64,000 nucleotides of DNA, taken from the NCBI RefSeq assembly GCF_054482595.1, contig NZ_CM137008.1; one strand, written 5' to 3'. The translations under genes and the position numbers were made by a program. Below the pieces are notes generated by a model, which searched no databases, had not been told where the DNA came from, and was given only the letters and a program-made list of their open reading frames with translations. Every line of letters begins with the position of its first letter. Position 1 is the stretch's first letter. Positions 11,151 to 12,607 of this stretch are shown here, in pieces.

Positions 11151-11209
11151 GCTATGATTAGCCGCTATTTTTTTGTCCTGAATGATGTTTGACACTACCG
11201 AGGTGTACT

Positions 11210-12607
11210 ATTTTTACCCGAGTCGCTAATTTTTGCCGCAAGGTGCTAAGCCGCGAGGAAAGCGAGGCTGAACAGGCAGTCGCCCGTCCACAGGTGACGG
11301 TGATCCCGCGTGAGCAGCATGCTATTTCCCGCAAAGATATCAGTGAAAATGCCCTGAAGGTAATGTACAGGCTCAATAAAGCGGGATACGAAGCCTGGCT
11401 GGTTGGCGGCGGCGTGCGCGACCTGTTACTTGGCAAAAAGCCGAAAGACTTTGACGTAACCACTAACGCCACGCCTGAGCAGGTGCGCAAACTGTTCCGT
11501 AACTGCCGCCTGGTGGGTCGCCGTTTCCGTCTGGCTCATGTGATGTTTGGCCCGGAGATTATCGAAGTTGCGACCTTCCGTGGACACCACGAAGGTAACG
11601 TCAGCGACCGCACGACCTCCCAACGCGGGCAAAACGGCATGTTGCTGCGCGACAACATTTTCGGCTCCATCGAAGAAGACGCCCAGCGCCGCGATTTCAC
11701 TATCAACAGCCTGTATTACAGCGTAGCGGATTTTACCGTCCGTGATTACGTTGGCGGTATGAAGGATCTGAAGGACGGTGTTATCCGTCTGATTGGTAAC
11801 CCGGAAACGCGCTACCGTGAAGATCCGGTACGTATGCTGCGCGCGGTACGTTTTGCCGCCAAATTGGGTATGCGCATCAGCCCGGAAACCGCAGAACCGA
11901 TCCCTCGCCTCGCTACCCTGCTGAACGATATCCCACCGGCACGCCTGTTTGAAGAATCGCTTAAACTGCTACAAGCGGGCTACGGTTACGAAACCTATAA
12001 GCTGCTGTGTGAATATCATCTGTTCCAGCCACTGTTCCCGACCATTACCCGCTACTTCACGGAAAATGGCGACAGCCCGATGGAGCGGATCATTGAGCAG
12101 GTACTGAAGAACACCGATACGCGTATTCATAACGATATGCGCGTTAACCCGGCGTTTTTGTTTGCCGCCATGTTCTGGTACCCACTGCTGGAGACGGCAC
12201 AGAAGATCGCCCAGGAAAGCGGCCTGACCTATCACGACGCTTTCGCGCTGGCGATGAACGACGTGCTGGACGAAGCCTGCCGTTCACTGGCAATCCCGAA
12301 ACGCCTGACGACATTAACCCGCGATATCTGGCAGTTGCAGTTGCGTATGTCCCGACGTCAGGGTAAACGCGCATGGAAACTGCTGGAGCATCCTAAGTTC
12401 CGTGCGGCTTATGACCTGTTGGCCTTGCGAGCTGAAGTTGAGCGTAACGCTGAACTGCAGCGTCTGGTGAAATGGTGGGGTGAGTTCCAGGTTTCCGCGC
12501 CACCAGACCAAAAAGGGATGCTCAACGAGCTGGATGAAGAACCATCACCGCGTCGTCGTACTCGTCGTCCACGCAAACGCGCACCACGTCGTGAGGGTAC
12601 CGCATGA
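11210..12607 (+). CDS. pcnB: Poly(A) polymerase I
   Basis: ORF-track 472 aa from TTG 11189; the known E. coli pcnB start is an AUU codon giving [11 protein letters not shown]..., which corresponds to ATT at 11210; nucleotidyltransferase motif [17 protein letters not shown]. Confidence 0.85.

Follow-up and report, generated by a model that had tools for sequence, protein, structure and literature searches.

We are highly confident that translation of pcnB, the gene for poly(A) polymerase I (PAP I), starts at an AUU codon at position 11210 and not at the in-frame TTG upstream of it. Positions refer to the window, a 64,000-nt stretch of contig NZ_CM137008.1 from assembly GCF_054482595.1, of which the pcnB piece covers 11,151 to 12,607. 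Published work already makes the AUU start of pcnB a textbook case, so the finding is right but unremarkable, and nothing about the start codon itself is new here. The strain keeps the start arrangement of Escherichia coli K-12 base for base. The enzyme concerned tags RNAs for decay and controls the copy number of ColE1/R1-type plasmids.

Sequence arrangement and identity of pcnB

The window carries sfsA-dksA-gluQ-pcnB-folK in this order on the + strand, which includes the dksA-gluQ-pcnB-folK neighborhood that identifies a PcnB member. When a 601-nt probe across the start site was compared with complete E. coli genomes, it matched 5424 of 5426 and was 100% identical to strain H9Ecoli. Read directly from the window, the pcnB frame runs TGA, TGT, TTG, ACA CTA CCG AGG TGT ACT, ATT. 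The TGA stop (11183 to 11185, + strand, like all features described here) closes the frame nine codons upstream of ATT, and the TTG (11189 to 11191), part of a TTGACA hexamer at 11189 to 11194, is the second codon after the stop and lies seven codons upstream of ATT in the same frame. A Shine-Dalgarno (SD) sequence, GAGGTG (11200 to 11205), stands 4 nt before ATT, or 6 nt when counted from its GAGG core. The ATT itself (11210 to 11212) opens the RefSeq coding sequence of 11210 to 12607, 465 codons plus TGA, and is followed by TTT ACC CGA GTC GCT AAT TTT TGC CGC AAG GTG; the last of these, codon 12 (11243 to 11245), is the start picked by automatic gene callers, which yields 454-aa products. 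At the other end, the pcnB stop codon and the folK start codon share an ATGA overlap (12604 to 12607) in both the open reading frame list and the annotation. As a separate observation, the 9-mers ATTTTTACC and ATTTTTGCC, at 11210 and 11229, form a two-copy short direct repeat that may be due to chance.

A preliminary description of this DNA had placed the open reading frame start at TTG 11189 and the true N-terminus at ATT 11210, and both statements hold. The program-made list indeed gives 11189 to 12607 with a TTG start and 472 aa, and the annotation, the family profile, and conservation all agree on ATT. Comparison with annotated pcnB starts, which the same description had proposed, returned ATT in all three E. 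coli genomes consulted: K-12 MG1655 (b0143, 157729..159126, NP_414685.4, 465 aa), H9Ecoli (WP_010723084.1), and a third genome. Its further claim that the known arrangement is preserved in this strain was borne out at the level of DNA, as the 104 nt 5' of ATT, comprising the promoter-like site described below, the leader, the TTG, and the SD sequence, are identical to those of K-12. PcnB from the window shows no amino acid differences from NP_414685.4 over 465 residues, with 16 synonymous substitutions in the coding sequence. This pcnB thus shares its protein, its annotated start, and its 104-nt upstream region with the K-12 gene, and differs from it upstream only from -105 onward, by a few changes within gluQ, none of which bears on initiation. 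Of 5424 complete E. coli genomes, 5416 carry the 60-mer from 11180 to 11239 unchanged, and the single variant inspected has a C-to-T change at 11208, in the spacer.

Family assignment leads to the same N-terminus. The protein scores 995.3 bits against the NCBIfam equivalog NF008634 (cutoff, 702), with residues 1 to 464 aligned to profile positions 1 to 468 of 469, and profile position 1 falls on the residue encoded by ATT; when the 472-aa reading frame is used as the query, the match begins at residue 8 and leaves MTLPRCT outside. Precomputed Pfam assignments for an E. coli cluster of the same length (P0002) list PF01743, PF12627, and PF12626, which are the nucleotidyltransferase head, RNA-binding, and Arg-rich C-terminal domains that define PcnB. 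Structures 3AQK to 3AQN in the PDB, entered as "Poly(A) polymerase," match residues 28 to 442.

Transcript leader and ribosome-binding site

A consensus scan of positions 10700 to 11400 returned one promoter-like site, the sigma-70-like TTCTCA-17 nt-TATGAT at 11130 to 11158, where 0.7 sites were expected in shuffled sequences. TATGAT and the sequence following it, TAGCCGCTATTTTTTTGTCC, are conserved in many genera. The site is probably the major promoter published as pB, and in that case the leader would be about 45 nt long and would probably include the TTG. Transcription would start near 11164 to 11166, which would place TTG and ATT on the same mRNA. Two other elements in this region were considered and rejected. 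TTGACA (11189 to 11194), taken as a -35 box, has no acceptable -10 sequence at 16 to 18 nt and is not part of any promoter returned by the scan; an out-of-frame upstream reading frame, ATGATG...TAA (11182 to 11229), was discarded as a conserved element, for it lacks SD pairing (+1.5 and +1.3 kcal/mol) and its start occurs only in Escherichia and a handful of relatives.

The position of the TTG, in frame, seven codons upstream, and probably on the transcript from the 11130 to 11158 site, is what gives some substance to the alternative that it is the start codon and that a 472-aa PAP I is made, as the main product or as a minor N-terminally extended isoform. The codon itself adds to this, as UUG belongs to a class initiating at 10 to 100% of the AUG level and AUU gives about 1 to 2% of that level in reporters (bioRxiv 10.1101/063800), making UUG intrinsically a much better start. 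Against this alternative stands the ribosome-binding site. GAGGTG before ATT forms a duplex of -7.2 kcal/mol with the 3' end of 16S rRNA, a pairing stronger than that of 76% of 33 neighboring annotated genes and one reached at 1.35% of random positions, and the same search found no SD pairing upstream of the TTG (+0.4 kcal/mol). By the trinucleotide frequencies of the window, the chance of finding at least one ATG, GTG, or TTG among the eight sense codons between the upstream stop and ATT is 0.30. A start-like codon is therefore expected there about 30% of the time by chance, and we read the TTG as an artifact of longest-frame calling; the GAGGTG-N4-ATT arrangement, on the other hand, is far above chance.

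Conservation of the ATT codon in Enterobacteriaceae

The comparison set consisted of one genome per species from the 80 closest species, all of them Enterobacteriaceae, with 86 to 100% protein identity. ATT is present in 80/80 species, as is GAGGTG, and the full GAGGTG-N4-ATT arrangement is identical in 80/80. When we checked whether a canonical start could explain the conserved N-terminus, no in-frame ATG, GTG, or TTG was found between the nearest upstream stop and ATT in 43 of the 80 species, and this argues that ATT is the conserved start; E. coli itself is among those with a candidate, the TTG seven codons upstream. That TTG, at -21, occurs in 26/80 species (Escherichia, most Citrobacter, Kosakonia, and Phytobacter). 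Other upstream in-frame candidates lie at -30 or -33, and nearly all upstream candidates lack an SD sequence.

The pattern of substitution changes at the ATT codon. Across the 80 species, codons 2 to 11 contain five variable columns; each is a third codon position, and every change there is synonymous. Immediately before ATT, each position from -4 to -1 is variable, and in the TTG frame these changes would swap Thr for Asn, Ile, Ala, or Pro; further 5', gaps of lengths not divisible by three are needed to align the species. With synonymous-only variation after ATT and free variation before it, coding-type constraint therefore begins at ATT, and the seven extra codons of the 472-aa form show nonsynonymous changes.

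A further point for the upstream position comes from Salmonella enterica (L021, L022). There pcnB shares GAGGTG-N4-ATT and its first 12 codons with E. coli and differs in carrying ATG in place of TTG at -21; the NCBI protein begins at this ATG (P0013, 472 aa, MTLPRCAIFTRV..., 2921 member sequences) and is the form named PcnB. Forms of 472 aa have also been deposited for Kosakonia, Cronobacter, and Kluyvera. Set against these entries are the lack of an upstream start in more than half of the species, the beginning of NF008634 and of distant homologs at the ATT position, and the literature, in which papers citing the original study put the start at AUU in a strain of identical sequence (PMC2939334, PMC3561954). 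Evidence for use of the TTG was sought in the comparative analysis and in the literature, and none was found; the literature search on pcnB also returned no ribosome-profiling, retapamulin start-site, or N-terminal proteomic data. Because UUG is intrinsically the better codon, a minor 472-aa isoform keeps a small probability, but we regard initiation at the TTG, in either amount, as very improbable. Most likely, the TTG at 11189 is not a functional start but simply the first triplet resembling a start codon that follows the in-frame stop in the 5' leader.

More distant relatives

An initial protein search returned only Enterobacteriaceae, and more distant homologs were reached through representatives of clusters at 50% identity, with six contig look-ups. 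GAGGTG-N4-ATT is kept at 62 to 67% protein identity: in a reduced genome of 1.08 Mb (L084, 62% identity), the aligned start reads TGAGGTGTCCT ATT TTT ACC CGA, and two further loci have ACGAGGTGTACC ATT (L085, 67%) and GAGGTGTATT ATT (L087, 62%) there. At 55% identity (L088), ATT ATT occupies the aligned position with a GAGGAT motif at longer spacing. Another ortholog (L086, 54%) has ATC at the aligned codon and no canonical start anywhere from the upstream stop to the conserved N-terminal motif IRRVIELCKKV, and in the most divergent (L089, 48%), a GTG lies one codon from the aligned position. The order gluQ-pcnB-folK is found in L086 as well, and pcnB adjoins folK in L084, L087, and L088.

Many cluster representatives, at 43 to 53% identity, have their first residue no more than a few positions from E. 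coli residue 1, and they share a basic amphipathic N-terminus. These alignments put the ancestral N-terminus at the ATT codon rather than at -7 or +12. The recurrence of ATT in distant orthologs agrees with the statement in PMC3561954, which credits Binns & Masters with phylogenetic support for initiation at AUU in many Proteobacteria.

Downstream start codons

Automatic callers raise another possibility, that GTG codon 12 (11243) is the start and the protein has 454 residues. Public metagenome and assembly collections hold many predicted proteins of this length beginning MLSREESE... (P0003, P0014, and others), and the GTG is invariant in the 80 species. No SD pairing was found upstream of it (+1.9 kcal/mol), however, and codons 2 to 11, which it would leave untranslated, are conserved as protein, varying only synonymously. 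Orthologs with diverged DNA still encode the basic amphipathic N-terminus, and both RefSeq and NF008634 include residues 2 to 11 (FTRVANFCR...). We rejected codon 12 as a real start on the grounds of its missing SD sequence and the synonymous-only variation before it, and consider a 454-aa PAP I scarcely credible.

A different proposal is that a shorter PAP I is made in addition, from the internal ATG at codon 52 (11363 to 11365), on transcripts from the internal sigma-S promoter pS1. This codon was the original Liu & Parkinson start; under special conditions, it would supply a further isoform alongside the AUU-initiated protein, which it would not replace. According to PMC2939334, sigma-S holoenzyme uses pS1 in vitro and the promoter also works in vivo under special conditions; two bands reportedly react with anti-PAP I antibody on Western blots, an observation that also counts against the AUU reading. 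A patch of synonymous constraint at codons 36 to 46 (about 11315 to 11347) lies just upstream of the PS1.rev primer site. The authors of PMC2939334 nevertheless describe the codon-52 product as unproven and unlikely in normal growth. Codon 52 is Leu, not Met, in 57/80 species, so the ATG is not conserved, and the product would begin about 15 residues before the GGGVRD motif, lacking the conserved N-terminus. An additional isoform of this kind seems improbable to us, and AUU 11210 stands as the start of pcnB.

A near-invariant block around AUU

The translation initiation region, from -11 to +28 (11199 to 11238), is a 40-nt block with almost no variation among the 80 species, even at the synonymous sites of codons 2 to 9. 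Codons 2 to 5 are TTT in 80/80 species, ACC in 78/80, CGA in 80/80, and GTC in 80/80; codons 6 to 9 are GCT in 79/80, AAT in 80/80, TTT in 78/80, and TGC in 80/80. The first 8-codon window has a mean synonymous entropy of 0.054 bit, the lowest of 377 windows in a gene with a median of 0.97. The controls folK and gluQ, taken from the same loci, score 0.84 to 1.06 bit in their first windows, with minima of 0.72 to 0.83 anywhere in these genes, and the block is therefore not a generic 5'-end effect.

An Rfam scan of 10700 to 11700 at E<=10 returned no match, folding of the leader together with the first 20 codons is poorer than that of shuffled sequences (z=+1.06), and the alifold consensus is weak, at -9.3 kcal/mol. 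The only recurrent structure is a 6-bp hairpin (11199 to 11220, -4.5 kcal/mol) that pairs CG.GGUG of the SD sequence with UACC.CG of codons 2 to 4 and holds AUU in a 9-nt loop. It is compatible with all variants except for a few that break a terminal pair, and because both arms are invariant, it has no support from covariation. A mini reading frame from the GTG within the SD sequence to an invariant TAA was also considered; it is broken in sequences with GTG TAA, such as the block variant CGAGGTGTAAC, and dual coding was therefore rejected as the cause of the block. A literature search for posttranscriptional regulators of pcnB mRNA found nothing new.

Discussion

Two features place pcnB among AUU-initiated genes: AUU encodes residue 1 of the accepted protein, with FTRV... 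following, and an SD sequence lies at a functional distance from it. Experimental evidence for AUU initiation in K-12 pcnB, from the N-terminus and from mutagenesis, is credited to Binns & Masters 2002 (Mol Microbiol 44:1287) by PMC2939334, PMC3561954, and PMC4447247. The preliminary description had called the limiting effect of AUU on poly(A) polymerase documented, and the papers that cite this study concur that the codon limits PAP I synthesis (PMC2939334, PMC3561954, bioRxiv 10.1101/063800, PMC5499595, PMC4447247, PMC9764084). Confirmed AUU-initiated genes of E. coli are pcnB and infC only (bioRxiv 10.1101/063800, PMC5499595, PMC4245954, PMC4447247).

The best-supported mechanism is SD-directed initiation at a deliberately weak codon. 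GAGGUG (11200 to 11205), 4 nt 5' of AUU, would position the 30S subunit, and initiator tRNA would decode AUU as fMet to give the 465-aa product. As AUU is a poor start codon against which IF3 discriminates, PAP I synthesis would be capped. The cap would matter because surplus PAP I is toxic, polyadenylating mature tRNAs (PMC3561954).

In E. coli infC, which encodes IF3 and lies outside the window, an AUU start likewise limits expression, and there SD-directed initiation at AUU under IF3 discrimination is established (PMC5499595); by analogy with this paradigm, the level of IF3 may also modulate pcnB through discrimination against its AUU. The two genes differ in that the infC product is the discriminating factor itself, which makes its regulation direct autoregulation, whereas PAP I is a nucleotidyltransferase. 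Since PAP I is not an initiation factor, any effect of IF3 on pcnB would be regulation in trans. Autoregulation of the infC type is presumably not to be expected for pcnB, and we did not file the gene there. A rare ATT start also attenuates expression of a level-sensitive protein in Enterococcus faecalis, that of ebpA (PMC4447247), although gene and organism are unrelated to pcnB of E. coli and the analogy is one of mechanism only.

The ribosome-binding site of pcnB has been called "poor" (PMC3561954, PMC9764084), yet its SD pairing is stronger than the local median. This discrepancy between the label and an above-average energy leaves the picture of the initiation region incomplete. If the site is poor, the cause may be the weak hairpin at 11199 to 11220 or other context.

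For the 40-nt block, the default reading is strong stabilizing selection on a weak initiation region that is finely tuned. An unlikely reading is that the block is an undescribed cis-regulatory element on pcnB mRNA, for which the candidates could be a hairpin that sequesters the SD sequence and carries AUU in the loop, or a site at which a factor such as Hfq, a small RNA, or RNase E binds or cleaves. A lesser variant of this reading is dual initiation at UUG and AUU, with the 472-aa isoform possibly minor from UUG in E. coli and major from AUG in Salmonella. Were a cis-element present, it would add to the known "weak codon" effect by setting or modulating initiation at AUU.

For annotation, the locus serves as a warning: the longest open reading frame gives 472 aa from TTG, automatic callers give 454 aa from GTG codon 12, and only curated knowledge gives the correct 465 aa from ATT. 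For the cell, a weak start at AUU is among the means by which PAP I is held to a few tens of molecules.

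Results

The start of pcnB, the gene for poly(A) polymerase I (11210-12607, + strand), is embedded in a 40-nt block (11199-11238) comprising the Shine-Dalgarno sequence, the ATT start codon, and codons 2 to 9, and this block was invariant, synonymous sites included, across about 80 species of Enterobacteriaceae. Synonymous entropy within it was 0.054 bit, versus a median of 0.97 for pcnB; for the control genes folK and gluQ, the corresponding 5' ends gave 0.84 to 1.06 bit. A weak hairpin is predicted at 11199-11220, a fold that would sequester the Shine-Dalgarno sequence and leave AUU in the loop. 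No covariation for this hairpin was seen among the roughly 80 species, and the 40-nt block had no match in Rfam.

The in-frame TTG at 11189, 21 nt before ATT, opens a perfect -35 consensus hexamer (TTGACA, 11189-11194), and the sequence TGACAC is fairly conserved between genera. Several minor promoters (p1, p2) have been reported from the pcnB upstream region in the literature; no acceptable -10 partner for this hexamer was found at a spacing of 16 to 18 nt. The same region holds a 15-codon out-of-frame ORF (ATG ATG ... TAA, 11182-11229) that overlaps the pcnB Shine-Dalgarno sequence and start codon. This ORF is without a Shine-Dalgarno sequence of its own, its start codons occur only in Escherichia and a few relatives, and it is probably nonfunctional.

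Synonymous sites are also strongly constrained in a second patch, pcnB codons 36 to 46 (11315-11347), where CGC AAA GAT is invariant and window entropy falls at about 0.26 to 0.29 bit. An internal sigma-S promoter, pS1, has been reported within pcnB (PMC2939334), and the patch lies immediately 5' of the site of the PS1.rev primer from that study, so the constraint may be a trace of pS1. The ATG associated with pS1, at codon 52 (11363-11365), is replaced by a Leu codon in 57 of the 80 species.

Upstream of pcnB, the start of gluQ is annotated in two ways, at 10224 or at 10254. The K-12 entry (b0144) begins with ATG at 10224 and encodes 308 amino acids, and the PGAP model begins with ATG at 10254 and encodes 298, with no Shine-Dalgarno pairing at this second position (+1.5 kcal/mol). 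Downstream, the pcnB stop codon overlaps the folK start codon in an ATGA at 12604-12607, an arrangement suggesting that translation of folK is coupled to that of pcnB; in other species folK starts with either ATG (38 loci) or GTG (31 loci).

Discussion

Among more distant orthologs, a metagenomic pcnB with 54% identity and gluQ-pcnB-folK-panB synteny (L086:514-603) has ATC aligned with the ATT of E. coli. No ATG, GTG, or TTG is present there between the upstream stop codon and the conserved N-terminal motif IRRVIELCKKV, and the gene caller placed the start at an ATG 24 codons downstream, preceded by its own AGAGG. Either this ortholog uses a possible AUC start or its N terminus was recently shortened. 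The ortholog in a 5.0-Mb genome (CP043324.1; L085:601-2098) was called in two pieces of 316 and 150 amino acids. The split suggests that the gene is frameshifted or a pseudogene, or that an error was made in sequencing.

In Salmonella enterica subsp. diarizonae and arizonae (L021:1480-1503 and L022:1480-1503), ATG replaces the in-frame TTG of E. coli at -21, and GAGGTG-N4-ATT is conserved there as well. NCBI's PcnB in Salmonella is a 472-amino-acid form beginning MTLPRCAIFTRV (cluster P0013, 2,921 sequences), whereas in E. coli it is the 465-amino-acid ATT form, so annotation does not place the start consistently in these two genera. Public predictions of pcnB (proteins P0003, P0105, and similar) give at least four product lengths: 472 amino acids from TTG or ATG at -21, 465 from the curated ATT, 454 from GTG at codon 12, and 447 from a downstream ATG. 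The noncanonical start has thus scattered automated annotation of this gene.
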